Position numbers and translations under genes: made by a program. The notes beneath the pieces were generated by a model, which had not been told where the DNA came from, did no database searches, and worked only from the letters and a program-made list of their open reading frames with translations. A stretch of DNA of 64,000 nt, taken from contig OZ241986.1 in assembly GCA_965204375.1 (NCBI GenBank), positions 2,368,001-2,432,000 of the forward strand, in the 5' to 3' direction. This DNA is from Candidatus Latescibacterota bacterium (GTDB taxonomy: Bacteria; Latescibacterota; UBA2968). Below are positions 18,268 to 46,254 of the stretch, piece by piece (position 1 is the first letter of the stretch; each line of letters opens with the position of its first letter).

Positions 18268-18298
18268 CGCTCATTCTCCTGAAAAACATTGGTCAGTC

Positions 18299-20251: not shown

Positions 20252-20281
20252 ATCTGTGTTCATCTGCGTTCATCTGCGGAT
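20252..20281 (-). repeat. 10-bp x3 array (GAACGCAGAT family), copy 1
   Basis: ATCTGTGTTC ATCTGCGTTC ATCTGCGGAT; contains the stop codon of the TPR-peptidase gene. Confidence 0.85.
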
Positions 20282-25998: not shown

Positions 25999-26104
25999 GA
26001 AGTGTGAAGTGTGAAGTGTGAAGTGTGAAGTGTGAGATGAAGCACCCGCCTTTGGAGTGGTGTTGGGTGGACTTCTAACTTCTTCCTTCTTACTTCTCAC
26101 TTCC
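25999..26104 (+). repeat. Heptamer-armed element, copy 1: (GAAGTGT)5 - core - (ACTTCTY)n
   Basis: Starts 1 bp after the stop codon; core AAGCACCCGCCTTTGGAGTGGTGTTGGGTGG; arms approximately complementary. Confidence 0.88.
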
Positions 26105-26133
26105 TTGACAACCCATAGGCGATTTGATATATT
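26105..26133 (+). promoter_or_regulatory. Sigma-70-type promoter of tRNA-Leu(CAG)
   Basis: TTGACA-17 bp-TATATT with extended -10 TGn. Confidence 0.78.
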
Positions 26134-26154
26134 TGCCTTCGCACTGGATCAGGT

Positions 26155-26241
26155 GCCGAAGTGATGGAATTGGTAGACGTGCGGCGTTCAGGGCGCCGTG
26201 GGCTTAGGCCCGTGTGGGTTCGAATCCCACCTTCGGCACCA
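26155..26241 (+). tRNA. tRNA-Leu(CAG)
   Basis: GCCGAAGTGATGGAATTGGTAGAC...CGGCG-TTCAGGG-CGCCG...GGTTCGAATCCCACCTTCGGCACCA. Confidence 0.96.
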
Positions 26242-26276
26242 TAAATTAAAAAGACAATCTCCTCACACAGCGACAC

Positions 26277-26312
26277 AAAGGATTATGCCGATTAGGTATA
26301 ATCCTTTTTTTC
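26277..26312 (+). terminator. Intrinsic terminator after tRNA-Leu
   Basis: AAAGGATTATGCC-GATTA-GGTATAATCC followed by a T run. Confidence 0.75.
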
Positions 26313-26360
26313 CTATCCATCTTGCGAAAACAAGATATGGTGGATAGAAAGACGATTGCC

Positions 26361-26630
26361 ATGAAAACATTCACAGTTGAATATCCCGAATCTGTCCTAA
26401 CAACATTGAAACTCAGCCCCGAATCCTTTGAAGAACGAGCGAGAGTCGCGATGGCGGTGAAGCTCTTTGAAACGGGTCATTTGACCTCTGGACAGGCCGC
26501 AAAATTGGCAGGTATATCCCGCGTGGAATTTATGTTGCGCTGTCGGGAATTTGGAACGCCAAGCGTCACCTGGGATAAGGAAGAGCTTGAAGCAGAATTT
26601 AATGTGAGTCACAACGGAGCGCGAGAGTGA
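26361..26630 (+). CDS. UPF0175 family protein (putative antitoxin)
   Basis: AMAVKLFETGHLTSGQAAKLAGISRVEF...EELEAE. Confidence 0.88.
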   Translation: MKTFTVEYPESVLTTLKLSPESFEERARVAMAVKLFETGHLTSGQAAKLAGISRVEFMLRCREFGTPSVTWDKEELEAEFNVSHNGARE

Positions 26631-27514
26631 TCAGTTACGGAGAAGGGGTTGCACTCGGGGCGTCACTGGTTTGGGCATCCACCAGCCTCGTCTTAAGAAC
26701 GCTATCTCAGCACCAACCATCGGCACTCATCACAGCCATCCGCTGTGGAATTTCCGGGCCTTTTTTCTGGATGCTACTACCTTTTGGTCCACCCCTATCC
26801 ACACTGGTCAACGTACCGCTACATGAATGGGGGCTTTTGATCGGCTCCGTTTTCATCGGCATAGTCATTGGCGATCAACTCTATTTACACGCCATGAAAG
26901 AAATTGGCGTATCGCGCACAATGGCACTGGTTGGCACCCTTCCGATTACCACGCTAATTTGGGAGCAATTACTGCTCGATGTACCTGTCACCCACACCTT
27001 TATTTTTGGATGTGTATTGGCTGCATCTGGCGTTATCTTACTTTCCCAACGACCGCGCCAAAATCGCACAGACACACAAGAACACCCCATCCGCCTCAAA
27101 CGCGGGATAGTCTTCGCACTCATCACAGCCCTGCTCTGGGGTTTGAGCACCACCATGCTCAAACCCGCGATGGCACATCTCACCAGTATCCAAGCCAACA
27201 GCGTGCGAATGCCGCTCGTAGCCCTGGCATTATTCGGTATTTGGCGACTCAATCAGGGACGCGGCAACCTGCGCGACATCGGATGGCGTACATTTGCCCT
27301 GATTGCTCTGACAGGACTTTTGGGCATGGGCTTCGGATCTTTCTTCTATGTCGAAGCCGTTCTGTTCATCGGCCCCGCCAAAACAGCAACACTGACAACG
27401 GCAACCCCCGTCCTTGCACTTATTCTGGCCGTAATCTTTCTGAAAGAACAAATTACACTCCGCCTCCTCACAGGCGTTGCGCTCTGCGTGACCGGCGTTC
27501 TGCTCGTACTTTGA
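26627..27514 (+). CDS. DMT/EamA family transporter
   Basis: Two EamA repeats, about 10 TM helices, LAVIFLKEQIT. Confidence 0.92.
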   Translation: MISYGEGVALGASLVWASTSLVLRTLSQHQPSALITAIRCGISGPFFWMLLPFGPPLSTLVNVPLHEWGLLIGSVFIGIVIGDQLYLHAMKEIGVSRTMALVGTLPITTLIWEQLLLDVPVTHTFIFGCVLAASGVILLSQRPRQNRTDTQEHPIRLKRGIVFALITALLWGLSTTMLKPAMAHLTSIQANSVRMPLVALALFGIWRLNQGRGNLRDIGWRTFALIALTGLLGMGFGSFFYVEAVLFIGPAKTATLTTATPVLALILAVIFLKEQITLRLLTGVALCVTGVLLVL

Positions 27515-27623
27515 CTCCTTCATTTAGGAGATTGCACAGTTGACAAAATTTAAGTGAGAATTACATTATGAAACCCTTCGGAAACCCAATGAACATACAC
27601 AACAGCCAAACACAGGAGTAACC

Positions 27624-28295
27624 ATGGACGGCATTCACGACATGGGTGGGATGCATGGATTTGGTCCCATAGAGCGCGAAGAAAACGAACCTTTATTTCA
27701 CCACCCCTGGGAAAGCCGAGTACTCGCCATCTCCGTAGCCACACCTGTACCGATTCCCGGAGGCTCCCGCAACAACATCGAAAACATGGACCCCGCGCAC
27801 TACCTCTCGTCCAGCTATTACGAAAAATGGCTGTATTCCCGTATCAAAGGACTGATCGACGCTGGCGTACTAACCCCGGAAGAAATGGAAACGCGGATGG
27901 CGCTCTTCCGCAACAATCCCAATGCCGAAACTCCTGTACATCCCGACCCCGATGCCGTCAGAGCGGAACTTAAGCGCTCTCGCCCTGCTACCCCACCCCA
28001 ACAGAAAATGGACATCCAGCCGCAATTTTCCAATGGCGACCGCGTAAAAGCGCGCAATATCCATCCCGAAGGCCACACCCGGCTTCCCCGATATGTAAGG
28101 GGTAAATACGGCACGATCACAAATTACTACGGCATCGACAACCTCCAGGACGCCGAACTGCCCACAGGGTATACAAACCGCCAGCAACCCTTATACGCCG
28201 TGCGCTTTGAAGCCTCGGAACTGTGGGGTAGTGCCGCCGAAACAAAAAGTGCCGTCTATCTGGATATGTGGGAAAGTTATCTGGAATCCGTTTAA
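27624..28295 (+). CDS. nthB: Nitrile hydratase beta subunit
   Basis: MDGIHDMGGMHGFGP, YYEKW, GHTRLPRYVRGK, LWG...DMWESYL. Confidence 0.96.
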   Translation: MDGIHDMGGMHGFGPIEREENEPLFHHPWESRVLAISVATPVPIPGGSRNNIENMDPAHYLSSSYYEKWLYSRIKGLIDAGVLTPEEMETRMALFRNNPNAETPVHPDPDAVRAELKRSRPATPPQQKMDIQPQFSNGDRVKARNIHPEGHTRLPRYVRGKYGTITNYYGIDNLQDAELPTGYTNRQQPLYAVRFEASELWGSAAETKSAVYLDMWESYLESV

Positions 28296-28323
28296 CCATC
28301 CCTAAGCACAAAAGGATTCTTTT

Positions 28324-28914
28324 ATGAACACCGCCGAGACTGATGCAGCCCTGCGCACCAGAGCGCTCGAATCGCTCCTGATCGAAAAGGGATTGATTAC
28401 AGAGGACATAATAGACGAAGTCGTAGAAAAATACGAAAAAGACGTAGGTCCCCTCAACGGTGCCAGAGTGGTTGCCCGCGCCTGGACCGATCCGGACTAC
28501 AAGCAACGGCTGCTTGAAGATGGCAGAGCGGCGATTGCCGAACTGGGTTTTGACAGCGCGCATGGTGCCAAAATCGTCGTAATGGAAAACACCCCAGGCG
28601 TTCACCACCTCGTCGTCTGCACCCTTTGCTCCTGTTATCCCTGGTCCGTACTCGGCTTGCCCCCAAACTGGTACAAATCCTACGCGTACCGCTCCCGAGC
28701 CGTGCGAGAGCCAAGAGCCGTCTTGCAGGAATTTGAACTCGACTTACCCGATACCGTAGAAATCCGCGTCTGGGACAGCAACTCGGACCTCCGCTACATG
28801 GTCCTGCCCGAACGCCCTGCTGGCACAGAAGGCTACACCGAAGAACAACTCATTCCACTTGTCACGCGCGACTCAATGATCGGCGTCGCCAAAATCGAAT
28901 CGCCCGCAAAGTGA
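28324..28914 (+). CDS. nthA: Nitrile hydratase alpha subunit, cobalt type
   Basis: [10 protein letters not shown] (Thr/Tyr signature of Co-type), [27 protein letters not shown]. Confidence 0.97.
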
Positions 28915-28921
28915 GGCCAGC

Positions 28922-29272
28922 ATGACGCAAAAAACCGATAAAAACATCACCACTATGGAAGCGCGAATCGCCCTGCCCAGAGAAAATGGAGAACTCGTTT
29001 TTCAGGCACCCTGGGAAGCGCGCGCTTTCGGCCTTGCCGTTGCACTCAACGAAAAAGACCTCTACAAATGGCAGGAGTTCAGCTCCCAATTGGCTTCGGA
29101 AATCGCGGCAGCAGAACAAAACAACACCCCATCAAGCTACTATGCCCGATGGGTCGCCTCCCTCGAAGAATTGATCATTGCCCAGGGCTTAATCAGCCGG
29201 AAACAACTGGACGCCAGAATAGCGGAATACGCCTCTGGCATTCACGACGATCACGATCATCACGACCACTAA
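28922..29272 (+). CDS. Nitrile hydratase accessory/activator protein (P14K-like)
   Basis: VFQAPWEARAFGLAVAL, YYARWVASLE; His-rich tail HDDHDHHDH. Confidence 0.92.
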   Translation: MTQKTDKNITTMEARIALPRENGELVFQAPWEARAFGLAVALNEKDLYKWQEFSSQLASEIAAAEQNNTPSSYYARWVASLEELIIAQGLISRKQLDARIAEYASGIHDDHDHHDH

Positions 29273-29292
29273 AATTTACGACAGAAAAACAG

Positions 29293-29325
29293 AAAGGGTT
29301 ACGCCATCTCGACGTAACCCTTTTT
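29293..29325 (+). terminator. Intrinsic terminator after the nitrile hydratase operon
   Basis: AAAGGGTTACG-loop-CGTAACCCTTTTT. Confidence 0.8.
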
Positions 29326-29410
29326 AACTATTAACTTTACTGGCGTTGTGCTCAGCGTATGCCTATGCTGTGATCCTTCTCAAATTACGCGCTCTTCTTT
29401 TGATTTTTCC

Positions 29411-29440
29411 ATCTGCGTTCATCTGCGTTCATCTGCGGAT
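29411..29440 (-). repeat. 10-bp x3 array (GAACGCAGAT family), copy 2
   Basis: ATCTGCGTTC ATCTGCGTTC ATCTGCGGAT; 2 bp after the sulfatase stop. Confidence 0.88.
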
Positions 29441-29442
29441 CC

Positions 29443-30882
29443 TCAACGCTCTCGCCCCGACACAAACAAATCATAAGAATTTGACTGCCAGCCACCATCA
29501 TTTACAATCCCATCATTCGTATCTCTCAGCCATTTGACCATCCGATCTTTCATGCGCCTGAGCACATGTTTGTACCCCAACTTCGGAGCCAAATTGTGCA
29601 ACTCCCCGGGATCACTCTCCAGATCGTAGAGTTCATCCTCGCTACACGGATTGTAGATATACTTCCACTTTTGGGTCTGCACCATCCGAATCGTACACAG
29701 CGCAGGCTCGTACCCGTGATGTTCCGCAAAAATATCCTCCCGCCAATCCGACGGCGTCTCTCCGCGCAGCAAGGGCAGCAGAGAACACCCATCGACCTTA
29801 TCGGGAATATCCGCACCCGCCATCTCGAGAAACGTCGGCATCATATCGACCAAACTCACAAAATCATCGCAAACACGATTGGGTTCAACAACACCCGGCC
29901 AACGGATCGCCAATGGAATCTGGTGCGTCTCGTTGTACATATTCATCATCTTATTAAACAAGCGGTGACTGCCCAACATATCGCCGTGATCCGAACTGTA
30001 CACAATCACCGTATTGTCCAACTGCCCCGCCTCTTCTAAAGCATGTAGAACGCGCTGCACCTGATCATCAATAAACGTGCAATATCCCCAATACGTCGCG
30101 ATCACCTTCTGCCAATCGGGCCATGTCAAATGGCTGCCATTCCACCTGAGCATCTCCTTTTGCTGAACACTCGGTTTATCGACAAACTGCTCGTCGAAAT
30201 TGATCCAGCGCTCCACAGTATCGGGATCGTACATCTCATCGTAGGGTTCTGGCACACAATAGGGAAAATGCGGACCAAAAAAACTGCTGCAAATCATAAA
30301 GGGTTTATCGCCCTCACAAAAACCTTCAATCAGATCAATCGTCCTATCGGCAGTCCAGTGCTCCTGCATATACTCGGCGGGCAACTGCGACCGACCGCAA
30401 AAAGGCGCGTCACCCCCCCATTCCATGCGCTGAACCTCCTGAGCATATCCCCAATCAAAACCCGCATCGCGCACACTCTGGTTCCAATCACGCGTCGTAT
30501 GCCACGGGTCAAACCCCCAAAACTCGCTATCGCCCTCCCTGGGCAAATGCCACTTACCCACATAACCGACATTATAACCCGCATCAGATAAAATCTGAGG
30601 ATAGGCGGGCTTATCCAGAATATTTAAATCAAAAGCCCGATTAAAATTACCCATATTCGACATCTGCCCGTGATTGTGTGGAAACATCCCGGTAAGTAAC
30701 GACCCGCGCGCAGGAGAGCAAAGCGCAATGGGCGTATAGGCGCGGCAAAAACGCAGGCCCTCCTGGGCAATGCGATCAATCGCAGGCGTCTTGCACACCG
30801 CATTGCCATTAAATCCCAGCGCATCGTAGCGCTGCATATCGGTAAGCAAAAAAAGGATATTGGGTCTCTCCGTATTCATCAC
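29443..30882 (-). CDS. Sulfatase (formylglycine-dependent, Cys type)
   Basis: PNILFLLTD, CSPARGSLLTG, GKWH, SDHG, ELYDLESDPGE. Confidence 0.96.
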   Translation of the reverse strand: MMNTERPNILFLLTDMQRYDALGFNGNAVCKTPAIDRIAQEGLRFCRAYTPIALCSPARGSLLTGMFPHNHGQMSNMGNFNRAFDLNILDKPAYPQILSDAGYNVGYVGKWHLPREGDSEFWGFDPWHTTRDWNQSVRDAGFDWGYAQEVQRMEWGGDAPFCGRSQLPAEYMQEHWTADRTIDLIEGFCEGDKPFMICSSFFGPHFPYCVPEPYDEMYDPDTVERWINFDEQFVDKPSVQQKEMLRWNGSHLTWPDWQKVIATYWGYCTFIDDQVQRVLHALEEAGQLDNTVIVYSSDHGDMLGSHRLFNKMMNMYNETHQIPLAIRWPGVVEPNRVCDDFVSLVDMMPTFLEMAGADIPDKVDGCSLLPLLRGETPSDWREDIFAEHHGYEPALCTIRMVQTQKWKYIYNPCSEDELYDLESDPGELHNLAPKLGYKHVLRRMKDRMVKWLRDTNDGIVNDGGWQSNSYDLFVSGRER

Positions 30883-30896
30883 ATCAACCTCCTGTG

Positions 30897-32150
30897 TCAG
30901 CGGTCCGATTTACTTCTCCGAAAACAAATCCAAAACATAAACGCCCCCATCCCCGTGAGCACTGCCCCGGTGAGAAAAAGACTCGAATATCCCGCAACCG
31001 GGATCATATACCCACCCCCCAGAGCCATTGCCGAATAGCCTATCCCCGACATCATAGCAGTCGCACCCGACATGGCAGTACGCCAGCGCACGGGCACCAA
31101 CTCCTGGTGAAAAATGGCAAAAGCCGAGCGGCGAAGCGAAGCCATCGCCATAATCCCCACCAGGCAAACACCCGCAACAATCCAATTTGAGACCTGCGCC
31201 ATAAAAAAAAGAAAAACAGCCGTAACAACCGTTACCAGAACCACCGTCCGGCGAATGCCAAAACGCGCAGAAAAAAACGGAAGGGACAGTGCAGCCGGAA
31301 CAGCGAGCAACTGTCCCGCAGCGAGTTGCACACTAATCAGAGAAAGACTAATATTGAGACCTTTATCCATATAGACATTAAAAAATGTACGCGCCGCCGC
31401 TTCGCCAGCAACGTGGAGAACGGAAATCAGAGAAGTAATAACAATAGCCGCAAGTGGAAGCGCAGGCGTATTAGACACATCGCCACTATCCCCCACTTCC
31501 CGCTTGTCCTCAGCCTGAACATCCTGCGTGGCAAGCAGTGCGAAAACCGCCGGAATCAAACATAGCACCCCGATGAACAGCGTATAGCGGTAAACAACCG
31601 GCTGTGCGAGTGAAACACCGAGCACGCCTGCCAGATATTCCGGAACAACGCCCCCCAACATACTCCCGACAAATCCCGAAAAAGGCATCAGCGCGGCCTG
31701 CACGGCAAAAACCGGATCGCGCTCAGCAGGACCAGTAATACCCATCAAATAAGGCGTGCCATTTACAATAAACAGCGCAATACCCATCACACCGAGCGAA
31801 TAAGATATTAAAATAAAATAATCGCGCGTGCCGGAAGAAATCAACTCCGCCTGTGAAAGCAATCCAAAACCCGCCACAGACACACAAATCCCAACAACCA
31901 TCGTAAACCGGCTACCCCAGCGTCCACCCAGCATCCCACTGGGCAAACTGGACAGAGCAAAACAAAGTGCCCCCGTCGCATTTGCCAACCCCACAAACTC
32001 GGTATTATACCCCAGACGCAACAAATAGAGATTGTACAAAAGGGGATAAATACCGCCAAAAAGGACAAAACCAAACAGCGCATTAGCCGTTAAATAAAGG
32101 CGCACATCGCGGGAAAAATGCACATTTGAAAAGAGGATCAGGATTTTCAA
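30897..32150 (-). CDS. MFS transporter
   Basis: About 12 TM helices, YNLYLLRLGY, GMLGGRWGSR motif-A-like; start uncertain. Confidence 0.88.
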   Translation of the reverse strand: MKILILFSNVHFSRDVRLYLTANALFGFVLFGGIYPLLYNLYLLRLGYNTEFVGLANATGALCFALSSLPSGMLGGRWGSRFTMVVGICVSVAGFGLLSQAELISSGTRDYFILISYSLGVMGIALFIVNGTPYLMGITGPAERDPVFAVQAALMPFSGFVGSMLGGVVPEYLAGVLGVSLAQPVVYRYTLFIGVLCLIPAVFALLATQDVQAEDKREVGDSGDVSNTPALPLAAIVITSLISVLHVAGEAAARTFFNVYMDKGLNISLSLISVQLAAGQLLAVPAALSLPFFSARFGIRRTVVLVTVVTAVFLFFMAQVSNWIVAGVCLVGIMAMASLRRSAFAIFHQELVPVRWRTAMSGATAMMSGIGYSAMALGGGYMIPVAGYSSLFLTGAVLTGMGAFMFWICFRRSKSDR

Positions 32151-32276
32151 GATGAAAGGATTCTCAGGATAATAGGGTTAGTGGTCAGCGAAACAAGCGA
32201 TCAGCGGTCAGCTATCAGACCACCCAACCAGCCCCTCGCCTTTTTCATCTGCGTTTATCTGCGTTCATCTGTGGTT
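32139..32276. repeat. Composite repeat: 9-mer (CAGGATTTT), 7-mer (TCAGCGR), core CCACCCAAC, 10-mer x3 (copy 3)
   Basis: CAGGATTTT CAAGATGAA AGGATTCT CAGGAT; GTCAGCG..ATCAGCG GTCAGCT ATCAG; ATCTGCGTTT ATCTGCGTTC ATCTGTGGTT (32247-32276). Confidence 0.8.
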
Positions 32277-33471
32277 GCTTTTTCCATGCCGCGGGCAGAT
32301 CGCCTTGCAGGAGTTCGCTTTGTATGCGGATATGTGCGGTATCTCGATCTGCTGCATGTGCGGCCCAAAAAGAGCTATCTCGCGTGGTCGCCTCTGGAAG
32401 AATCACAATTTCCGGTCCTTCAAAAATTGCGGGGGGCAAATCCGTATTGAGATCATAGCGATAGCAACGCGTTGTCGCCTGCGCGGTATAATCGCGTGTC
32501 TTAATCGTGCAAATTTGACGTTCGAGCAACCAGTACTCATTGAGATATCGCGTATTTTGTTGATAAACCTGCCAGTGATCTATGCCGCGCAATTGCAAGA
32601 GCGCGGGAAAATTGAGACGCAGATCATACCCCACAAGCGAAAAATCATCGCGGGCGATCCACAAATCGCCGAGCAGACCCGGCTTGTGCCCGTGCCGCGG
32701 CGACACACCAATGCGCGAAACGTGGAGATCGCCCACCTGCACTGTGGAAATGCGTTCATAGTGGTAGTGTTCAAGCGCGTCGGGAGATAGCGGATGCGGC
32801 GCAATTTCAAAAGATTTATCATCTACAATACCCCGCGCAGGACTTTGCGTAAGCCCCGGAGAAACACTCAACCGCCATCTGCCCCAATTGCGTATGCCCG
32901 TAATATGCTGCGCGAGACTATCGGGGGATTGGTGATAGCCTTTAATCGTGTATTCAATACCCGCAACAATTTCTTCTGTTTTGCGGTTAATCACCTTCTG
33001 GCTACTGTACGCATCAAATGCATAAGTATCCATATTTGCATAACCAGTGTGGAGATATTCAAAGCGGGTATTTGCGATCAAATGACGGACCAGATCGGTC
33101 GCAGAGTGCTCCTGCACTGTAGTTTCCTCGCGCAGGAGGACAGGGGCGGGTAAAAGTAAAAGTTCCAGCGTGGAGATCAAGCCGCGCGAAAGCACAAGCG
33201 TTGTATCCGATGGGGCATATCCCTGGCGACGTGCCTGGACGTGTGTGATCCCCGGCGCGAGTCCTTCTATCTCAATGCGCCCGTGTAGATCGGTAATGTA
33301 AACGCGGGGAAATTCGTCTGGTCGGCGGAGAACAACAGTGACGTAGGGCAGGCTTGCATCGGTATCGGCATCGCGACACTGCGCGTGAAGAACAGATGTC
33401 GAATCAGTCTGTGCAGACGAGATTGAGGGCCAGAGAAAAGCAGAAAAAAAAAGCGGCAAAAAGCGGATCAT
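32245..33471 (-). CDS. Secreted protein with carboxypeptidase-regulatory-like domain and DUF5686-like region
   Basis: Signal peptide, DADTDASLPYVTV...TDLHG...GY, HPLSPDALEHYHY, GDLWI, RDSSFW. Confidence 0.7.
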   Translation of the reverse strand: MIRFLPLFFSAFLWPSISSAQTDSTSVLHAQCRDADTDASLPYVTVVLRRPDEFPRVYITDLHGRIEIEGLAPGITHVQARRQGYAPSDTTLVLSRGLISTLELLLLPAPVLLREETTVQEHSATDLVRHLIANTRFEYLHTGYANMDTYAFDAYSSQKVINRKTEEIVAGIEYTIKGYHQSPDSLAQHITGIRNWGRWRLSVSPGLTQSPARGIVDDKSFEIAPHPLSPDALEHYHYERISTVQVGDLHVSRIGVSPRHGHKPGLLGDLWIARDDFSLVGYDLRLNFPALLQLRGIDHWQVYQQNTRYLNEYWLLERQICTIKTRDYTAQATTRCYRYDLNTDLPPAIFEGPEIVILPEATTRDSSFWAAHAADRDTAHIRIQSELLQGDLPAAWKKQPQMNADKRR

Positions 33472-34559: not shown

Positions 34560-34570
34560 GATGAACCTTA

Positions 34571-34665
34571 CAAGTAAGAAGTGGGAAGTAAGAAGTGAGA
34601 AGACCTCCCAACACCGCCCCAAAGCGGTTGCCTTTTCACACTTCACATTTCACACTTCACATTTC
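34571..34665 (-). repeat. Heptamer-armed element, copy 2
   Basis: Minus strand, directly after the mdh stop: (GAARTGT)4 - AAGGCAACCGCTTTGGGGCGGTGTTGGGAGG - (CTTCTYA)n. Confidence 0.88.
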
Positions 34666-35676
34666 TCAAAGATGAACATTGCTATCCCGCCACTCAGAAA
34701 GCGGGGGCAAGATACCGTCGCCAATAGTCTGGTCTCGCAACGCAGTCAGATGGGCGTAGGATTCGCGCAGGGCATTGATATCGTCTTCAGTGCCTTCGGG
34801 CATGGACCAGTTCACGCCCGACGCAGACAGGGTCACGGGCATAGCCATCATAATATGATCAAATTCGCCATCATTGAGATATGCACCGCAGGGCCAATCA
34901 TAAGACTCGCCCACCAGAACGCCGCGCAGCATAAAAACGCTTTGTTGTGCCGGCGACTGAAACGAAGAGCGGCCGCGCAGATCGATAATGCGAGCACCAC
35001 CCCCGCGCACGTGATCTTGAACACCCGCCCATTCATCGGCACTCATACCAACGCCATTAACTGTCTCTCCATTGAGGATATCGGTGAGAGGCGTACCGTC
35101 AATCTGAATACCGCCGATAAACACGGCCATCTGTTCGCCGTGCCCCCCGTACGTGCGGCAACCTGTAACTTTACTTTGCAAAATGTCGAAATGTTGTGCC
35201 AGTCGGGTTTGCAAGCGCGTGCTATCGAGCGCGGCGAGAGTCGTCACGCGCCCGGGTTCGAGTCCCGAATGTACCAGCGTGGTCAACCCCGTAATGTCAG
35301 CCGGATTAAAAATAATGATAACAAACTTACAGTTGGAACAATACTGTTTAATATCAAGACCGAGTTGTTTGGCAATTTCTGCATTGTCGCGCCGCAAGTC
35401 TTCGCGTGTCATGCCTTCTTTGCGCGGCGCACCCCCGGAACTGATGACATAAGAAGCTCCGTCAAGTGCTTTGGCAGCATCGGTTGTCCAGGTAACATCG
35501 GCATTGGGAAAACCGCAGTGATAAACCTCCTCGGCCGCGCCTTCAAGCCCCGGCGCAAAAGGATCGTACATAGATACGCGAGACGCCGTGCCCGAAGACA
35601 AGAGCGTTTGCGCAAGGTTAGAACCAATGGCGCCTGCTGCGCCCATTACAGCAACTTTTTCATCTGTCAGGTACAT
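34666..35676 (-). CDS. mdh: Malate dehydrogenase (LDH/MDH family)
   Basis: GAAGAIG, GAPRKEGMTREDL (Arg specificity residue), NPAD, LDSTR, GGHGE. Confidence 0.9.
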   Translation of the reverse strand: MYLTDEKVAVMGAAGAIGSNLAQTLLSSGTASRVSMYDPFAPGLEGAAEEVYHCGFPNADVTWTTDAAKALDGASYVISSGGAPRKEGMTREDLRRDNAEIAKQLGLDIKQYCSNCKFVIIIFNPADITGLTTLVHSGLEPGRVTTLAALDSTRLQTRLAQHFDILQSKVTGCRTYGGHGEQMAVFIGGIQIDGTPLTDILNGETVNGVGMSADEWAGVQDHVRGGGARIIDLRGRSSFQSPAQQSVFMLRGVLVGESYDWPCGAYLNDGEFDHIMMAMPVTLSASGVNWSMPEGTEDDINALRESYAHLTALRDQTIGDGILPPLSEWRDSNVHL

Positions 35677-35707
35677 CGATACTCCTCTTTCAGGTGAATG
35701 GATGGAG

Positions 35708-35735
35708 AAAACCCCGCACTTTTGTACGGGGTTTT
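35708..35735 (-). terminator. Hairpin terminator downstream of the TPR gene
   Basis: AAAACCCCG...CGGGGTTTT. Confidence 0.7.
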
Positions 35736-35800
35736 GATGGTTGAATTGTTTATCTAAATACCCACTGTGGTTAGAACGAAACGCGACAGATCTATTACTC

Positions 35801-36982
35801 CTAATTCTGACTCTGAAGCGCCTCGTACATCTGAAATGCCTCAGTTGCTTTTTTTACACATTCTGCGGCAACATCGCCTTCTGAGACTTCGGATTTGCGC
35901 GCATAAACGCGAGATAACGCCGCCCATGCTCTGGCATTACTCGCTTGCAACTCGGTCACTTTTGTAAAAGCGTCAATAGCCCTGTCATAAGAATCTATTT
36001 TATCTGCGAGCAGGCCAAGCTGGTACCACGCATCGGCGTCAGTCGGATTTGCTTCAACGCTTTTTGCAAACAGATCGAGTGCTTTATCGCCTTTGTCGAG
36101 TTGCTTATACGCAATAGCGAGATTGAACAGCGCGTCCATATTATCGGGCTGTATCTCAACCACTTTTTCGAGAATTTCGGCAGATTTTTCGTAGTTCTCG
36201 GCCTGCAAATAAATGGTTGCGGCAATATTTAAAATTTTTGGATCATCACCGGCAATAGCCAGTGCTTTCTCCGCTGAATCCGCCGCGCCTTCTTTGTCGC
36301 CCAGTCGGTATTGGGCAATCGACATGTGCTGCAAAATATTGATTTCTTCGGGATCAATCGCGTGGCCCTTTTTGAACATCTCAAGAGCTTCTTCAATCCG
36401 TTCGACATTCATAAGCGCGCCGCCCAGATTGAAAAAGGACTGCGCTTTTTTGGGATTGAGCTCAATCGCTTTTTGATACATCTCAATACCCGCTTCTGAA
36501 TTGCCCGAATTGAGATGCGTAATAGCCAGCCCTTCATAAGCATCGGCTTCATTGGGATTAATCGTAATGGCGAGATCGAATTGCTCAATGGCAAAATCAA
36601 ACCTCTGGGCATTCATTCCCTTGACGGCCATGTTGTAATACCGCGTCCAGAGCTCTTTGCGATCAGCATCGACTTTCCTTTTCCACTTTCTGTCCGTTGC
36701 CAGATTATAGTGTTCATTCATCTCTTCAAAAAGCTCTTTCTGGCCGTAGAGCCAACCCAAATAATACTGCACCTCGGAATCGTCGGGACGTCCTTCCGCC
36801 GCGATCTGATACTGCTCCATCGCCTTATCGTATTGGCGCTGGTTGATATACAGCTTGCCCGAGCGTTTGGCTACTGAAGCCTGTCCTTTGGTCACTTTTG
36901 CCTCTGCGGTCTGTACGAATAATGGGGCCGCAGCAAAGGCCAGTGCAAGGACAACAATAAATCCGCGCTTAAAAAATGTCAT
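35801..36982 (-). CDS. Secreted tetratricopeptide repeat protein
   Basis: Signal peptide ending AEA; multiple 34-aa TPRs (AIELNP..AQSFFNLG). Confidence 0.92.
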   Translation of the reverse strand: MTFFKRGFIVVLALAFAAAPLFVQTAEAKVTKGQASVAKRSGKLYINQRQYDKAMEQYQIAAEGRPDDSEVQYYLGWLYGQKELFEEMNEHYNLATDRKWKRKVDADRKELWTRYYNMAVKGMNAQRFDFAIEQFDLAITINPNEADAYEGLAITHLNSGNSEAGIEMYQKAIELNPKKAQSFFNLGGALMNVERIEEALEMFKKGHAIDPEEINILQHMSIAQYRLGDKEGAADSAEKALAIAGDDPKILNIAATIYLQAENYEKSAEILEKVVEIQPDNMDALFNLAIAYKQLDKGDKALDLFAKSVEANPTDADAWYQLGLLADKIDSYDRAIDAFTKVTELQASNARAWAALSRVYARKSEVSEGDVAAECVKKATEAFQMYEALQSQN

Positions 36983-37118
36983 GGGAATTTTCCTTTCTCA
37001 ACGCAACCGGCGCGTTCCGGCAGCAGGTTAAATGACAATGTACGCTGCCAATATATGCAGTGTGCAAAATCCTGTCAAGTCTCTGCGCGAAGGCGCGAAC
37101 TGCACACCGCTATTGCCC

Positions 37119-37304
37119 TTATTGTTCCGACAGAAGCGTGCCGCCTCTCGCCCAGTGGTCGCGGGGAATATCTTCAATAACAACCATCGTGCCATCGGCT
37201 TTGGCATTGCAAATATTGACCATCGCATCGGTGATAGCTCTGGCGAGTTCGCGTTTTTGCTCGTGCGTGCGGCCTTCGAGCATTTTAACATTAATGAAAG
37301 GCAT
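37119..37304 (-). CDS. 4-oxalocrotonate tautomerase family protein
   Basis: MPFINVKMLEGRTHEQKREL...WARGG; catalytic Pro1. Confidence 0.95.
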   Translation of the reverse strand: MPFINVKMLEGRTHEQKRELARAITDAMVNICNAKADGTMVVIEDIPRDHWARGGTLLSEQ

Positions 37305-37315
37305 TATACCTCCTT

Positions 37316-38650
37316 TTAAAAAATAATCAGTTCTGGACTTTGCAACCTGGGGATCGCGGGTTTGGATGCGCCAAAGGAAAAAGCAACCGGCAGGCTAAAG
37401 CCGCGGATAGTACCCAGAGTTCTATTATTTTCAAGATCGACAATAAAGACCTGCAAATTACCCGTTGTAGCAAAAGCGTCGAGTCTTTCGACTCCGGCGA
37501 CGTACACAGTCTTACCATCGGGTGTGAGACCGATACTGGCCACACTTTCACCGACAAAAATCTCGGCTGTTTGCCTCCAGGTTTGTGTATCGATAACCAC
37601 AATACCGCCCCAGAACGCGGGCACGGAATTGCCCAATGCATCAAAACCAAAAAAGAAACGACCGAGAGAGGCGACAAGGCGCGTGCCATCGGCGGAAAGC
37701 GCGATATCGCGGACTTCAACGCCCAGATCATTGGCCTGACCGAGTGTGAGACTATCCGCAATCGCTCTGGTACTGGTATTAACTTTGAGCACGCGGCCCG
37801 CGCGGGTATTATTGAGATAAAGGCTTTGTCCATCGGGCGAAACAGCCAATCGACTAACGGTTTGGCCCACAGAGATACTGTCGATCAGCGCTGGAATACC
37901 CGTATCAATAACAGACACGGCATTTGTCTCATTGCCGTGCCCAACGTAGAGGCGCGTGCCATCGTGCGAGATGGCAATACCGCTGGGCGTGAGCGGAACA
38001 TCGATGATGCCCAGAGACTGTCCGAACAGCACATCAAAGACTTCGACTGCCGCACCGGATTCTTCGGTCACGTATGCAAACTGGTGATCGGGTGAAAGCG
38101 CAATGCGAAACCCGCCTCGACTCGTGAATGCGCCGCCGGGTGCGATTGGCATTTCGAGCGAGAGTTGAAAGTCGGGCGTTCCATCTTCAGTAAATGCGTG
38201 AAAGGTATCGGTAGCAGCCACATAAAGCCGCTTATTGACATTGGAAAACGCGACACCCCGCGGAAAAGAGACGGGAATCGTCCGGTTAGGGTCGAGCAAA
38301 TTGGTCGAAATGTCAATAACGTGAATACTGCCAATCAAATCGCTAATATAAAGAAACCGAGGCTCAGGTTCTGCAGGTGGAGGTGGAGTCGTCGGACTTG
38401 AAGACCCGCCAAAAGCATTGACAAAAAGCAGAAAATCCGAAAAATCGATTGTACCATTGCCGTCGAGATCGAGTTTTTCATTGAAATCATCCTGACCGAC
38501 AGACTTGCCAAAACCCTGAGCAAACGCCAGAAAGTCAGTGAAATCAACAGTGCCATTACCATCAAAATCTGCCGACTTTGTTTCCTGGGCATTGAGCAAT
38601 GGGGCTGCTAAAATTAGTGTGAGAGACAATACAATCGCGGTATATTTCAT
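37316..38650 (-). CDS. Secreted dockerin/EF-hand-like domain plus YVTN/YncE beta-propeller protein
   Basis: DFDGNGTVDFTDFLAF and DLDGNGTIDFSDFLLF, Pro-rich linker, repeated SPDG..LYV blades. Confidence 0.85.
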   Translation of the reverse strand: MKYTAIVLSLTLILAAPLLNAQETKSADFDGNGTVDFTDFLAFAQGFGKSVGQDDFNEKLDLDGNGTIDFSDFLLFVNAFGGSSSPTTPPPPAEPEPRFLYISDLIGSIHVIDISTNLLDPNRTIPVSFPRGVAFSNVNKRLYVAATDTFHAFTEDGTPDFQLSLEMPIAPGGAFTSRGGFRIALSPDHQFAYVTEESGAAVEVFDVLFGQSLGIIDVPLTPSGIAISHDGTRLYVGHGNETNAVSVIDTGIPALIDSISVGQTVSRLAVSPDGQSLYLNNTRAGRVLKVNTSTRAIADSLTLGQANDLGVEVRDIALSADGTRLVASLGRFFFGFDALGNSVPAFWGGIVVIDTQTWRQTAEIFVGESVASIGLTPDGKTVYVAGVERLDAFATTGNLQVFIVDLENNRTLGTIRGFSLPVAFSFGASKPAIPRLQSPELIIF

Positions 38651-38778
38651 AACATTTCCTTTTTTGAGAATACTTTATGATACATTTCACCGTTGAGGCT
38701 GTCAATCTGAATTGATTACATTTTGGGACGTTTCCCATTTGCTTATAGTTCCCAGTTCTGAATAAAATAGGAGATATT

Positions 38779-39564
38779 GTGTTACCCGATTATCCAATGA
38801 TTTTTTGGATTCTGGCTGTCATTTCTGTAATTTTTGTCGGTATAGCCAAAGCCGGGTTTGGCGGAGGCGTTGGCATTTTGGCAACGCCACTCATGGCACT
38901 TGTCATTCCCGTAGCAGATTCGGCGGCGATTTTGTTGCCACTCTTAATGGTTTGCGATGTATTTGCCGTTGCACACTACCGCAAGCATTTTCATCGGCGC
39001 AGTGTAAAATTGCTCTTGCCCGGTGCTGCAATCGGGATCGGTATAGGAGCATTATTCTTTGGATATTTCAGCGCGAATGAGCGCGTATTGCAACTCGGTT
39101 TGGGGATTTTGAGTTTATTCTTTGTGGTATTCCAGGCTTTGCGCGCAGTGATTACGGGCGCACTTACAAAGCGACACCCACACAGTGCAGAAGGCGTTTT
39201 CATGGGCGCAATAGCGGGCTTTACATCAACCATCGCACATGCCGGCGGTCCCCCCACAACCATCTATTTGCTTCCCCAAAAACTGCCCCGCGACCTCTTT
39301 GTGGGAACAACCGTAATTCTTTTTGCAGCGATCAATCAAATGAAATTAATTCCCTATTTGGGATTGGATATTTTGCGAGCCGAACATCTCGTCACAATCG
39401 CAATCCTATCCCCATTGAGCTACGCGGGCGTGAGATTGGGCATTTTCTTGAACAAGCGTTTCACAGACCACTGGTTTAATCTAATCGTCTATTCAATTCT
39501 ATTTATCGCAGGCGTGCAGTTGATTTCGGGCAAAAACTTAATTCAGTTGTTAGGCATTGTGTAA
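38779..39564 (+). CDS. TauE/SafE (TSUP) family exporter
   Basis: KAGFGGG, LLPLLMVCD, GFTSTIAHAGGPP. Confidence 0.92.
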   Translation: MLPDYPMIFWILAVISVIFVGIAKAGFGGGVGILATPLMALVIPVADSAAILLPLLMVCDVFAVAHYRKHFHRRSVKLLLPGAAIGIGIGALFFGYFSANERVLQLGLGILSLFFVVFQALRAVITGALTKRHPHSAEGVFMGAIAGFTSTIAHAGGPPTTIYLLPQKLPRDLFVGTTVILFAAINQMKLIPYLGLDILRAEHLVTIAILSPLSYAGVRLGIFLNKRFTDHWFNLIVYSILFIAGVQLISGKNLIQLLGIV

Positions 39565-39610
39565 ACTGTAAAATTGCCCTATTTTTAAAAAATAAAGGAC
39601 CGGGGACAAA

Positions 39611-39728
39611 GAAGTGGGAAGGAAGAAGGAAGAAGTGAGAAAGCCGCTCAACCCTGCCCCAAATCTGTTGCTTAATATCGCACTTCTCCCTTCACACTTC
39701 CTACTTCACACTTCCTACTTCACACTTC
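39611..39728 (-). repeat. Heptamer-armed element, copy 3
   Basis: Minus strand (GAAGTGT/GAAGTAG)n - AAGCAACAGATTTGGGGCAGGGTTGAGCGG - (CTTCTTC/CTTCCCA)n. Confidence 0.82.
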
Positions 39729-39740
39729 TAGAGGTTGGCC

Positions 39741-40394
39741 ATGGCATCGCGCATCTGCTTTATACTGACCTGTCTCATTGCTTTTTCCGGGTGTTATACG
39801 CAACTTCGGGCACCGCGCGTTCATCGTGAACAACGCGCTGAATCCCCTGTCAAACCTTCTGAAGATTCTGTAAAGCGGTTTGAATATTACTACTACAATT
39901 ATTGCAATCCATCTCCTCTGCCATTTTACGAATCATACCATCCATATCGCCCGTACCGTCCATATCGGCGATATCCGCGATGGAACCGGCACCGCCTCAT
40001 CTGGAAATATTCGAGTTGGGCAAGCGTGTACGACCCGTGGTGGCGGGGGTGGTCGCCGAGGATTTTGGTGCCTCATATTGTATATGCGCCAGCGCCAGCA
40101 GTAAGACCTCAGATAGAACGCGAACAGGTCAATCCGCGTCCCCGTATCAGATACACGGGTGTGCGTGGCGAACCCGCATCGGCCAGCACAATTCGGTCGG
40201 GCAACACCACAACAGAAAGCACACCCACAACACAACCGGAAAACTCGCGCAGCACCAAAAAGGAAAGCACACAGCAAACTGGAAACTCGCGCAGCACCAA
40301 AACACAATCATCGGAAAAATCAAAAAAAGAAGAAAAATCTGAAAAGCGCGAAGAGAAGCGCTCAACGCAGCGCCGCAGAGGGGAGATGAGATAA
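39741..40394 (+). CDS. Lipoprotein with Tyr/Pro/Trp-rich middle and low-complexity Ser/Thr/Lys/Arg tail
   Basis: Lipobox FSGC then YTQL; stop overlaps the next start. Confidence 0.75.
   Translation: MASRICFILTCLIAFSGCYTQLRAPRVHREQRAESPVKPSEDSVKRFEYYYYNYCNPSPLPFYESYHPYRPYRPYRRYPRWNRHRLIWKYSSWASVYDPWWRGWSPRILVPHIVYAPAPAVRPQIEREQVNPRPRIRYTGVRGEPASASTIRSGNTTTESTPTTQPENSRSTKKESTQQTGNSRSTKTQSSEKSKKEEKSEKREEKRSTQRRRGEMR
40241..40302 (+). repeat. 20-bp exact direct repeat with 42-bp period inside the lipoprotein tail
   Basis: AAACTCGCGCAGCACCAAAA at 40241 and 40283 (NSRSTK twice). Confidence 0.85.
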
Positions 40395-41668
40395 TGTCCA
40401 AATATCTCTGTATCCCGACATTCGTGATTTGCGTCTTCGCGGTATCTATCCCCGCACAAGAAGTCGCTCTCGATAGCTTTTCTGGCATTGGTGCCCGCGC
40501 CATGGGCATGGGCGGTGCTTACATTTCCGTATCCGATGATTTTTCTGGCCTGTTCTGGAACCCCGCGGGATTGGCGCGGATTGAGCGCGGAACCGTAAAT
40601 TGGGGCGTTTCGCACGACCGCTTTCGCAACATATCGCAATTTTTTGACCACTCTTCAACACTCGAATTGCGCAGTACGCGCATTGCATCCCTGGGCTTTG
40701 TTTATCCCGTTCCCGTGTACCGCGGGAGTCTGGTATTCGCCGGAGGATTTGGGCGTAATCAAAATTTTGACGGGGGATTACAGATCGATGCGTATGATAC
40801 CATCGCCAATTTTGATAAAGCGGGATTTTCAAAAGACAAAGGCGCTCTCGGCGCGTGGACATTGGGGGCTGCAATTGATCTGATGCCGCGTTTGTCGGCG
40901 GGGATCTCGTTGTTTCGCTGGGGGGGAACCAATCGCTTTTTACAGGAATTGACCCTTGAGGATGTGCAGCGGGTACACGCCGACACCATCCGCATCTTCC
41001 AGCGTTTTGAATCTGAGGAACGCTATTCTGCCTGGGGCATCCAGGGCGGCATTCGGTATTGGCATCCCACGGGATTTCAATTTGGCATTGTAGCAACAGC
41101 GGCCACGCCATTGCGCGTATCGGCTGAGCTGGCGGATGAATTTGAAGACGAGTTTGAAGACCGCACAGATACCTATCCACGCGAATCTTTTTCGGACGCA
41201 TATAAAATTCGTCAACCCCTGACTTTTGGGATGGGAATTGGATGGTCATCGGGAGGGTTGACGGTGAGCGGCGACGTGAATTACGGCGATTTGCAAGAAG
41301 TGACTTACGAGATTTTGCCACTCAATATTGCACCCAATGTCGATGACTTCCGGCGGCAATATCGCAGCGCGGCGCGGCTGCACCTGGGATGTGAATACGC
41401 TATTTCGCCCTGGGGCATCGCGTTCAGAGGTGGGTACTATCGCGATCCGGTTCGCTATGTGGGGGGCGGCAGTGTCCCGGAAATACAGATTGAGACAGAC
41501 CGCGATGCGTGGACACTCGGTTTTGGCACTGAATTGGAAAAGGCTGTAACCCTGGATTTTGCCGCTGTTATTGGCGGCTACAAAGCCATTGAAGGCAATC
41601 GCGCAGATCGCGTACGTGCCGTGCGAGTACTCGCGTCGGCGCGTTTTTATTTTTTTACAGGACTTTAG
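40394..41668 (+). CDS. OmpP1/FadL-like outer-membrane beta-barrel
   Basis: GARAMGMGGAY.SVSDD.SGLFWNPAGL; alternating beta-strand pattern. Confidence 0.85.
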   Translation: MSKYLCIPTFVICVFAVSIPAQEVALDSFSGIGARAMGMGGAYISVSDDFSGLFWNPAGLARIERGTVNWGVSHDRFRNISQFFDHSSTLELRSTRIASLGFVYPVPVYRGSLVFAGGFGRNQNFDGGLQIDAYDTIANFDKAGFSKDKGALGAWTLGAAIDLMPRLSAGISLFRWGGTNRFLQELTLEDVQRVHADTIRIFQRFESEERYSAWGIQGGIRYWHPTGFQFGIVATAATPLRVSAELADEFEDEFEDRTDTYPRESFSDAYKIRQPLTFGMGIGWSSGGLTVSGDVNYGDLQEVTYEILPLNIAPNVDDFRRQYRSAARLHLGCEYAISPWGIAFRGGYYRDPVRYVGGGSVPEIQIETDRDAWTLGFGTELEKAVTLDFAAVIGGYKAIEGNRADRVRAVRVLASARFYFFTGL

Positions 41669-41687
41669 AGATCTCAAAGGAGTTAGC

Positions 41688-42452
41688 ATGGGGCAGCATA
41701 TTTCTGAAGCACAGTGGGCAACATTTGAAGCACAGGGATATCTTCACCTGGGCAATGTGATGGACGATGGAGAACTGGAGGCATTACAGCAGCGAATAGA
41801 CGAGATCATGCTGGGCACGGCGTCTATCGACTACGATCATGTAATGATGCAACTGGATTCCGACCCCGAGAACGATGGAAAACCCGGTCCACAAAGCAAA
41901 GGACATAAATACACGACACTCGGGTATCGCAAAATTCAAAATTTGGAATTGGATCCCCTCTTTCTTTCATTTTTGCAAAAATCGCAATTTCGAGAAATCT
42001 GTGAACACATCTATGGCAAAAATACGCCAGTAGATTGTTTTCGGGCGATGTTCATGAACAAACCCGCACACGATGGCACCCCACTGGTATGGCATCAGGA
42101 CCGCTGGACGGATCTAACCCTCGATCCTCAAATCACGATATGGACGGCACTGGATCCCACATCCGTTGAAAACGGCTGTGTGAAAATTATTCCGGGATCG
42201 CACAACAAGTTGATAAATCCCGAACATGGCTCCGGATTTTTGACCGAAGAACACATCGAGACCATTGTATCCCAATACGAGCCAATCGATTTGATATTAG
42301 AAGCCGGCGACTCGGTTTTGCTCCACAACTGGATGCTGCACAGTTCGGGTATAAATACCACAGATATCGCGCGGCGTGCATTCAGCGTGTGTTATATGCA
42401 CGGTGACACGCGCTCATTGCGCGGCAACACCTTCACCCGTGTCTTTGGATAG
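41688..42452 (+). CDS. PhyH family dioxygenase
   Basis: WHQD, ENGCVKIIPGSH, MLHSSGIN...RRA; ATG follows AAGGAG. Confidence 0.92.
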   Translation: MGQHISEAQWATFEAQGYLHLGNVMDDGELEALQQRIDEIMLGTASIDYDHVMMQLDSDPENDGKPGPQSKGHKYTTLGYRKIQNLELDPLFLSFLQKSQFREICEHIYGKNTPVDCFRAMFMNKPAHDGTPLVWHQDRWTDLTLDPQITIWTALDPTSVENGCVKIIPGSHNKLINPEHGSGFLTEEHIETIVSQYEPIDLILEAGDSVLLHNWMLHSSGINTTDIARRAFSVCYMHGDTRSLRGNTFTRVFG

Positions 42453-42521
42453 ACGAATAGACGAATAGACGAATAGACGAACCCCGCCCAACCACCCATC
42501 TGTTTTCGTTGATTCGTTGAT
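42449..42521 (+). repeat. Octamer-armed element: (ATAGACGA)4 - CCCCGCCCAACCACCC - (TCGTTGAT)2
   Basis: First unit contains the TAG stop; right arm is a degenerate reverse complement of the left. Confidence 0.82.
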
Positions 42522-42555
42522 GAACTGGCCTGAGAGGCGGCCAGTTATACACCGT
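42521..42555. repeat. 35-bp REP-like hairpin, copy 2
   Basis: TGAACTGGCC-TGAGAGGC-GGCCAGTT-ATACACCGT. Confidence 0.7.
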
Positions 42556-42568
42556 TCCGCTGATTTAT

Positions 42569-44302: not shown

Positions 44303-44311
44303 GAGATCTTT

Positions 44312-45493: not shown

Positions 45494-45525
45494 CGCTTCA
45501 CCTCCCTCACAACCTACAACAAAAT

Positions 45526-45561
45526 AATCCGTGAAATCCGCGTAATCCGTATAATCCGCGA
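45526..45561 (+). repeat. 9-bp x4 array (AATCCGYRW)
   Basis: AATCCGTGA AATCCGCGT AATCCGTAT AATCCGCGA. Confidence 0.85.
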
Positions 45562-46205: not shown

Positions 46206-46254
46206 TCCGCAGATGAACGCAGATGAACGCAGATGAAAGGCGAGGGACTGGGTG
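46205..46254 (+). repeat. 10-bp x3 array (GAACGCAGAT family), copy 4, with tail
   Basis: ATCCGCAGAT GAACGCAGAT GAACGCAGAT GAAAGGCGAGGGACTGGGTG, beginning on the TGA stop. Confidence 0.88.

Follow-up and report, generated by a model that had tools for sequence, protein, structure and literature searches.

Gene-less hairpin elements with interchangeable repeat arms in the intergenic gaps of a marine Latescibacterota genome and its close relatives

Results

Hairpin elements at the locus

The 64-kb window analyzed here, the whole stretch of DNA presented (C1:2368001-2432000), belongs to a Candidatus Latescibacterota genome, G000, which consists of a single contig (C1) of 6.34 Mb and is 96% complete. 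The window holds five elements built of short-repeat arms around a core. Such ~100-base hairpin elements are real: they spread recently in one group of marine bacteria, as inserts that take the place of a few bases just behind stop codons. All five sit between protein or tRNA genes, and their host genes are ordinary (mannonate-dehydratase-like, tRNA-Leu, malate dehydrogenase, dioxygenase and pabB).

Element 1 (25999-26104, + strand) comprises five A-type heptamer units (25999-26033), a G-rich core (~26036-26075) and a B-type pyrimidine arm (26071-26103). It begins 1 bp past the TGA at 25995-25997 that ends a mannonate-dehydratase-like gene (25038-25997, + strand; score below the family cut-off), and it spans the whole gap from this stop to the -35 box of a sigma-70-like promoter (26105-26133, + strand; 11/12 consensus matches), ending exactly at that box. 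The promoter serves a tRNA-Leu(CAG) gene (26155-26241, + strand). Element 2 (34572-34665, - strand) has a heptamer arm, a core and a second heptamer arm, and begins directly after the stop codon of a malate dehydrogenase-like gene (34666-35676, - strand). Element 3 (39608-39730, + strand), with a B-type purine arm (39611-39638), a C-rich core and an A-type pyrimidine arm (39681-39728), is reversed relative to element 1 and begins 46 bp past its upstream stop. Element 4 (42449-42521, + strand) combines an octamer purine arm, a C-rich half core and an octamer pyrimidine arm upstream of a PabB-like aminodeoxychorismate synthase gene (42569-44302, + strand). Its octamer arm provides the stop codon of the dioxygenase gene, which in the short allele encodes 10 more residues (42447-42452). 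A separate small hairpin module (42522-42558, - strand) is nested in the octamer arm of element 4. Element 5 (32134-32275, + strand) is a patchwork of four modules, namely a nonamer-like arm, a 7-mer arm (32196-32218), a C-rich half core (~32221-32237) and a decamer pyrimidine arm (32244-32271); read on the - strand, the decamer arm codes for the final residues and the stop of the open reading frame (ORF) 33501-32245 (at 32245-32275).

A preliminary description of this DNA had located the five elements, three quoted cores and the arm units correctly, and had rightly noted that copies 1 and 2 (elements 1 and 2) start 0-1 bp past a stop and that copy 3 is reversed. The element near 32.2 kb is present as well, and is larger than had been described, running over all four modules.

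The A- and B-type heptamer words differ slightly, which leaves about one mismatch per unit in a long hairpin. Folds were stronger than those of shuffled sequences for copies 1 and 3 (four folds) and for the + strand of copy 2, with z from -2.2 to -6.1, and weaker for the transcribed strand of copy 2 (-1.8), the octamer copy (-1.6) and the 32.2-kb copy (-0.65). Alignment folding of the core yielded no pairs on either strand, giving no consensus structure, and no terminator-like site was found at element 1.

Arms and core across the genome

A pattern search of G000 recovered 188 heptamer, 120 decamer, 62 octamer and 41 nonamer arm arrays, with 184, 111, 58 and 37, respectively, not contained in a predicted gene. 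The number of units per arm ranged from 3 to ~28. Arm order was fixed from purine to pyrimidine: 63 of the 69 such pairs lay ≤130 bp apart, while the 11 pairs in pyrimidine-then-purine order were never closer than 706 bp. Of the 63 close pairs, 43 were heptamer-heptamer combinations, whose gap was most often 38-39 bp, and 12 combined two different arm families, confirming that arms are interchangeable.

A profile hidden Markov model (HMM) of the core, trained on 36 copies, detected 52 sites in G000 at E ≤ 1e-3 and 61 at E ≤ 0.1, compared with 0 and 1 in the reversed genome. The core is therefore enriched genome-wide above chance. None of the 61 sites was contained in a predicted gene, in agreement with a dispersed family devoid of coding capacity. 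Position was biased too, as had been anticipated. A stop codon abutted the outer end of the purine run in 97/188 heptamer, 61/120 decamer, 31/62 octamer and 5/41 nonamer arms, against 8% for random placement, and a stop read into the pyrimidine run in only 2/411 arms overall and 1/188 heptamer arms. The arm itself furnished the stop codon in 55 heptamer cases. Core sites showed some enrichment between convergent genes (15/61 vs. 238/2060 gaps). An orientation rule relative to transcription, which the first copies had suggested, did not hold genome-wide (18/34, no bias).

The G-rich strand of the core lay on the leading strand at 43/61 sites (p = 0.002), which agrees with the local G/C skew (45/61). 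Replication-linked insertion was rejected as an account of this bias, which is inseparable from local G/C skew and comes from copies that are not independent. A reading of the core as a G-quadruplex or as a Chi/KOPS (FtsK orienting polar sequence) motif was dropped as well, at least three G3 runs being present in only 18 of 36 cores.

Only part of the core persists when the arms change. A C-rich half core occurred directly inside 54/81 B-type heptamer arms (training copies included), 5/107 A-type arms and 21/62 octamer arms, and in 0/120 decamer arms, 0/41 nonamer arms and 2/1500 random intergenic spots (two-mismatch limit). Since this C-rich half follows B-type heptamer and octamer arms, the shared core is only ~15 bp long; the remaining half varies with the arm family. 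The proposal of a core that outlasts exchanges of arm unit thus stood for heptamer B-type and octamer arms and failed for decamers and nonamers. The 9-mer GTTGGGYGG, put forward as a recurring core marker, performed poorly (97 and 95 observed vs. 53-59 and 79-80 expected). Its frequency was ~1.0-1.8 times expectation, with one variant below expectation, and it is absent from copies 2 and 3. A loose regular expression for the C-rich core was discarded as well (1143 matches vs. 1129 in the reversed control).

Other small modules share these gaps. The 42522-42558 hairpin module, 35-37 bp long, enters arm units of several families and had 70 copies genome-wide, 66 of them intergenic, with 0 in the reversed control; we presume a resemblance to cyanobacterial small dispersed repeats. 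CGTC-tagged palindromes (57 in G000, all intergenic) were found in the same gaps as the arms, as were GTAG-type palindromes, for which the pattern count was dropped (109 vs. 75 in the reversed control). Runs like STRR1, one of the cyanobacterial short tandemly repeated repetitive (STRR) heptamers, numbered only 16 in G000, based on what we take to be the STRR1-3 words.

Distribution of the core

Congeners of G000 are denoted by the other G-numbers (21 genomes in the genus comparison). Matches to an 18-base core pattern numbered 40 in G000, 17 each in G009, G010 and G012, 10 in G005 and 0-5 in the other 16 congeners, and 101 genomes outside the genus had 0-4, against 0-6 in the control. Among 18 genus matches inspected, 12 were armless chance occurrences (plus one in G000) and six were true elements in the shallow clade. 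Candidate founder copies outside the genus were rejected, as all 10 matches inspected were armless chance occurrences, and so were those in deep-branching congeners, where the armless matches inspected were likewise due to chance. The core thus occurs in a single clade of this genus. Pairwise identity between cores had a median of ~73%, and 0.3% of pairs reached 95%. With one clade only, this level of identity and no consensus fold, the core did not behave as the general conserved recombination site that had been supposed.

Presence and absence among close relatives

All five window sites were polymorphic, with congeners carrying short or differently filled alleles at four of them. At site 1 (18 genomes), the heptamer-core-heptamer element was present in four (G000, G010, G012 and G009), another patchwork in G015 and a short allele in 13; the tRNA-Leu promoter was retained in both filled and short alleles. 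At site 2 (21 genomes), two genomes including G018 carried the same element, three had other fills (G005, G009 and G015) and 16 were short, with alleles of 9-31 bp, many of which amounted to a worn pyrimidine arm. At site 3 (17 genomes), the same allele was found in two, including G010, one other fill in G009 and short alleles in 14. At site 4, the octamer fill was shared by G000, G016 and G003, with an ancestral tail in nine others; in G012, G018 and G009, pabB has been lost and an octamer remnant now adjoins the ribosome-binding site of the next-but-one gene. The pabB-like gene was missing or cut in several congeners (42449-44312). The deepest branches in gene trees (G001, G011 and G017) lacked a core element at sites 1-4, indicating that the filled state is derived. 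Short alleles of the shallow clade often kept a worn pyrimidine arm, and new fills ended in that arm. Fills at one site could be unrelated in sequence, and some were single-armed.

Alleles were also empty in a much closer strain, seen in contigs from sequencing runs (X4, X8 and X5). The X4 contigs were ~98% identical to G000 (32 differences over 1854 bases) and held shorter stretches of other sequence at three elements: 39 bases where G000 has 142 at element 5, 29 where it has 123 at element 3, and 39 where it has 119 at element 4. At element 4, the 39 bases, present in X4 and X8, are the ancestral tail, and contigs of all three runs skip 42449-42567. Element 5 was likewise skipped in all three, with 39 other bases there in X4 and X8. 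X8 derives from the same sample as X4; it too consists of contigs, and depth peaks over arms there stem from other loci. X5 has the identical three joints at low depth. Presence/absence polymorphism therefore extends from congeners, at sites 1-4, to a ~98% identical strain, at three sites.

The same held beyond the window. When G000 was compared with G016 (94.5% flank identity), 122 orthologous gaps included 89 without arms, 14 with arms in G000 only, four with arms in G016 only, 10 with different arm families and five with the same, so that 28 of 33 arm-bearing gaps differed. Regions compared with G010 and G008 were mostly non-syntenic, and 28 and 35 gaps were scored there. Host bases had been replaced in 18/18 filled/unfilled pairs, and target duplication was seen in 0/18; the replaced DNA measured 4-24 bases in ten pairs and 69-492 in eight whose other allele was complex. 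Between genomes sharing a fill, no co-conversion or high-identity flanking tract was seen beside the shared filled alleles.

Cargo genes within the same arms

The preliminary description stated that four-helix-bundle (TIGR02436) and GxxExxY (TIGR04256) genes are often flanked by such arrays, and this link was supported. The only TIGR02436 gene in G000 (C1:4542460-4542783) has a purine heptamer array upstream and a pyrimidine array of the same heptamer downstream, and the heptamer is the arm word of this four-helix-bundle subfamily. Homologous loci numbered 80 (Acidobacteriota, Planctomycetota, Nitrospirota, Bacillota and others), of which 75 had sufficient flank. The purine pattern was found upstream in 73, the pyrimidine pattern downstream in 68, both in 66 and the reverse arrangement in none, while 0/300 control window pairs had both patterns. 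Flank duplex energy was abandoned as an arm test, 395/426 controls having passed, and pattern counts were used instead. A second purine arm lay 3' of the gene at 11/75 loci; if the DNA between the two purine arms were deleted, an arm-loop-arm element would remain.

The only full GxxExxY gene in G000 lies between two complete nonamer-armed hairpins in the same orientation, with G-rich loops, and by eye and word counts GxxExxY genes lie in 9-10-mer arms. Among the 21 genus genomes, TIGR02436 genes occurred in 6 and GxxExxY genes in 16; both their sites and their arm words varied. A junction of a restriction subunit gene with a methylase gene (L145-L158), absent from G000, was present in 13/21 genomes. 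Its alleles held a GxxExxY gene in seven cases, an empty hairpin of matching arms in two, a collapsed single unit in two, no arm in one and an 804-bp insert in one. The GxxExxY genes there fall into two kinds that share 39% identity and have separate arm words. The 804-bp insert (L156, G032) opens with a long array of yet another heptamer. At the four-helix-bundle site of G000, alleles were loaded in G000 and G002, truncated in G009, reduced to the pyrimidine arm in G012, G013 and G014, and armless in G018. The G000 gene follows a type I restriction subunit gene. Because the junction was hit twice and the G000 gene lies behind a restriction subunit, loaded cassettes may favor restriction-modification loci.

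A DNA methylase gene that is uninterrupted in G000 (C1:5502635-5505394) has, in G017 (L084) and G001 (L085), about ten codons replaced by a four-helix-bundle cassette that uses another heptamer. A 649-aa host frame in G017 (L084:225-2174) remains open across a 131-aa cargo frame (+1; L084:1438-1833); in G001, where additional heptamer units are present in the arm, the host frame is shifted. The number of heptamer units could thus act as a phase switch. A search of solved structures gave one sequence match only, 2rld, an uncharacterised protein.

Discussion

Origin and spread of the elements

We lean toward reading the elements as gene-less, non-autonomous derivatives of a four-helix-bundle (TIGR02436/PF05635) or GxxExxY (TIGR04256/PF13366) cassette, copied by replacement-type recombination. 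The heptamer arms would very likely have arrived with such a cassette. The arm-core-arm unit would then have arisen probably once, in one clade, by gene loss or by capture of a C-rich spacer, before replacement-type recombination spread copies of it to tens of gaps. Short homology handles would be provided by arm units and by remnants of old arms, with copying often onto worn arms; slippage would alter the unit number, and crossover between copies would swap arms and create patchworks, into which other small modules may also insert (the 57 CGTC-type palindromes and the third hairpin, with 70 copies). Tentatively, a cassette protein acting in trans might drive the copying, which would otherwise fall to host repair; candidate actors are the PD-(D/E)XK-fold GxxExxY protein as a cutter or the four-helix bundle as a hairpin binder. 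The limits of the inserts, a stop codon on one side and the next promoter or ribosome-binding site on the other, were most likely set by selection, helped by in-arm stops.

In a bolder version, which we regard as doubtful, the arms would be the ends by which the four-helix-bundle or GxxExxY protein recognizes and drives mobile elements of an undescribed class that crosses phyla. Each protein would recognize its own arm word, act at the hairpin and replace a few host bases at gene ends, or even in frame inside genes, and the gene-less copies would be non-autonomous parasites remodeling nearly every free gap, protein C-termini and gene content.

Several observations weigh against derivation from a cassette. 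No cargo gene was present at window sites 1-4 in any allele (17-21 genomes per site), contrary to the idea that the window elements are empty sites awaiting cargo, and octamer arms were near a cargo gene at 0/78 loci (tblastn), with no loaded parent found; 38 ORFs downstream of octamer-arm loci appeared to be ordinary host genes or spurious frames. The core was not beside any of the 80 four-helix-bundle loci (best E 1.7), so that it is not part of the cross-phylum cassette. Core number and gene presence did not go together, as G002 has the heptamer-armed gene but 5 core matches and G010 has 17 core matches yet no TIGR02436 gene. The median core identity of ~73% is easier to reconcile with a long history or with heavy mixing than with a single clean burst. 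Both arms were scored at only 7/25 GxxExxY loci by a word list that missed variants visible by eye, and 8 of the 18 filled/unfilled pairs had long, complex 'unfilled' alleles, while two of the ten pairs with 4-24 replaced bases had a poor left anchor. Gene positions and ends came from a purpose-built gene caller. Finally, PF13366 is listed as of unknown function in the relevant part of PMC3424549, and neither protein has a known activity.

Alternative explanations

Turnover by the host alone, in which decayed repeats grow by slippage and spread by gene conversion or illegitimate recombination, with the small genes as passengers and no cassette protein, agrees with replacement junctions lacking duplication, with patchwork alleles, with unit numbers from 3 to ~28, with the conflicting gene trees of neighboring loci and with core numbers independent of gene presence; segment replacement by illegitimate recombination is, in the portion of PMC2884548 concerned, the main form of bacterial microdiversity. 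We nevertheless find it rather unlikely, since it leaves unexplained that one protein subfamily keeps arm word and polarity across phyla (66/75), that a stop reads into the pyrimidine run in so few heptamer arms, and that whole arm-core-arm units, whose modal gap is 38-39 bp, appear at new sites, and the high-identity flanking tracts between genomes sharing a filled allele were missing. Selection for RNA function, with hairpins kept for mRNA 3'-end protection or for RNase III cutting between co-transcribed genes, appears quite improbable. Each site lacks a fill in most congeners, and three lack one in the ~98% identical strain; fills at one site are unrelated and some are one-armed, there is neither a terminator-like site at element 1 nor a consensus fold of the core, and an RNA effect, likely as a by-product, would leave the spread unexplained. 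These facts stand against the strong folds of three copies, the placement right after stops with some enrichment in convergent gaps, and the RNase III gene of G000. Similar roles have been proposed for cyanobacterial 7-bp repeat hairpins in the section of PMC2670836 on these repeats, and the stem of the Coxiella intervening sequence is cut by RNase III according to the corresponding text of PMC4990558.

Two known classes of mobile hairpin were considered as well. Elements of the REPIN type, hairpins of repetitive extragenic palindromic (REP) sequences moved by a REP-associated tyrosine transposase (RAYT), are likewise extragenic and lie after genes; GTAG- and CGTC-tagged palindromes are among the modules here, G012 and G002 carry RAYT-like genes accompanied by GTAG repeats (L236 and L237), and the leading-strand bias of the core would be in keeping. 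This origin is very improbable for the present elements, as no PF01797 gene was found in the 96% complete G000, these arms bracket 0/15 of the Y1-transposase loci inspected in the genus, the GTAG tag is absent from arms and core, and local G/C skew accounts for the strand bias equally well. Nor are the elements at all likely to be integron attC-like sites for a site-specific recombinase, despite imperfect hairpins right after stops and a G000 GxxExxY gene between two complete hairpins of like orientation: no integron integrase (TIGR02249) scored above cut-off in G000, junctions float and host bases are deleted with no fixed crossover point in the alleles, and the elements are scattered singly among housekeeping genes.

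Relation to known systems

A cassette-derived element of this kind, as we favor, would have a close known counterpart in 23S rRNA intervening sequences with a PF05635 ORF (PMC4990558 and PMC11270868, in the parts that treat them). The loaded form has the same protein family, the ORF lies within a long imperfect stem with variable-number tandem heptamers in the arm, the insert replaces a short host loop, and distribution is sporadic; in Coxiella burnetii, the 5' stem of the intervening sequence that carries the S23p ORF contains tandem heptamers (PMC4990558, same part). Unlike these, the copies here lie between mRNA genes, are mostly gene-less, number tens per genome and swap arms, and no arm array was found near the tRNA-Ile/Ala pair of the rRNA operon (C1:5408000-5417000). 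Cyanobacterial STRR heptamers and the P6b hairpin of the tRNA-Leu intron (portions of PMC2670836 and PMC3488679) also consist of 7-bp intergenic tandem repeats that pair into hairpins, vary in unit number, lie near gene 3' ends and take up other small inserts. The present elements differ in phylum and words, in coexisting 8-, 9- and 10-mers, in a shared spacer and in a direct link to cargo genes that goes unmentioned for STRR in those portions.

REP/REPIN sequences, as far as the corresponding parts of PMC3116915 and PMC3733652 go, share the character of small, extragenic, non-autonomous hairpins downstream of genes, with lineage-specific numbers, and accompany a rare single-copy protein gene carrying the same repeats. 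Here the arms are tandem arrays rather than tagged palindromes, no Y1 transposase was found in G000, and the linked genes encode a four-helix bundle and a PD-(D/E)XK-fold protein. Miniature inverted-repeat transposable elements (MITEs; PMC3733652, relevant part) are similar in being ~100 bp long, polymorphic and situated beside coding sequences, with inverted ends and no coding capacity; unlike them, the present elements have no fixed termini, show no target duplication (0/18) and entail loss of host bases. No cognate DDE transposase turned up, and no search aimed at one was made. The elements represent a variant of repeat-armed hairpin elements specific to one clade, and the cassette system to which they are tied is apparently unpublished. 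A mostly open-access literature search, with most subscription papers outside it, found no paper that described the elements or connected these genes with tandem arms.

In the decades since they became known, neither heptamer repeat hairpins nor rRNA intervening sequences that carry an ORF have been traced to an origin or a mobility mechanism, and the portions of the literature cited here assign no activity to PF05635 or PF13366. Orthologous sites in this genus, compared between genomes that are 90-98% identical, come in loaded, empty, collapsed and never-filled states with junctions readable at base level, which makes it directly testable whether the proteins move their arms. If the protein-driven reading were true, it would provide a function for two large families of unknown function and an origin for both heptamer repeats and rRNA intervening sequences. 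Even on a dull reading, the elements are a major source of strain-level variation, as in the 28/33 arm-bearing gaps that differ between two congeners. Some inserts truncate proteins at the C-terminus, and the loss of one whole gene has its end point at an arm.

Other features of the window and genome

Solo decamer arms were also found in the window on the + strand. Two are pyrimidine arms, at 20252-20279 and at 29410-29438, the latter just past the 3' end of a - strand sulfatase-like ORF (30882-29443), and one is a purine arm (46207-46237) directly after a stop at 46205. A nonamer-type pyrimidine arm (45525-45560, + strand) lies just ahead of a ribosome-binding site and start codon. Three ORFs at 27624-29272 presumably encode the beta and alpha subunits of a nitrile hydratase and its accessory protein, judging from their translations. 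We take the small ORF at 18050-18270 to be an AbrB-type antitoxin gene, and that at 26337-26630, which had no NCBIfam match, to be UPF0175-like. Elsewhere in G000, two reverse-transcriptase genes (C1:1647901-1648704 and 3938347-3939084) lie within ORFs of 635 and 585 aa, which match group II intron proteins in size.

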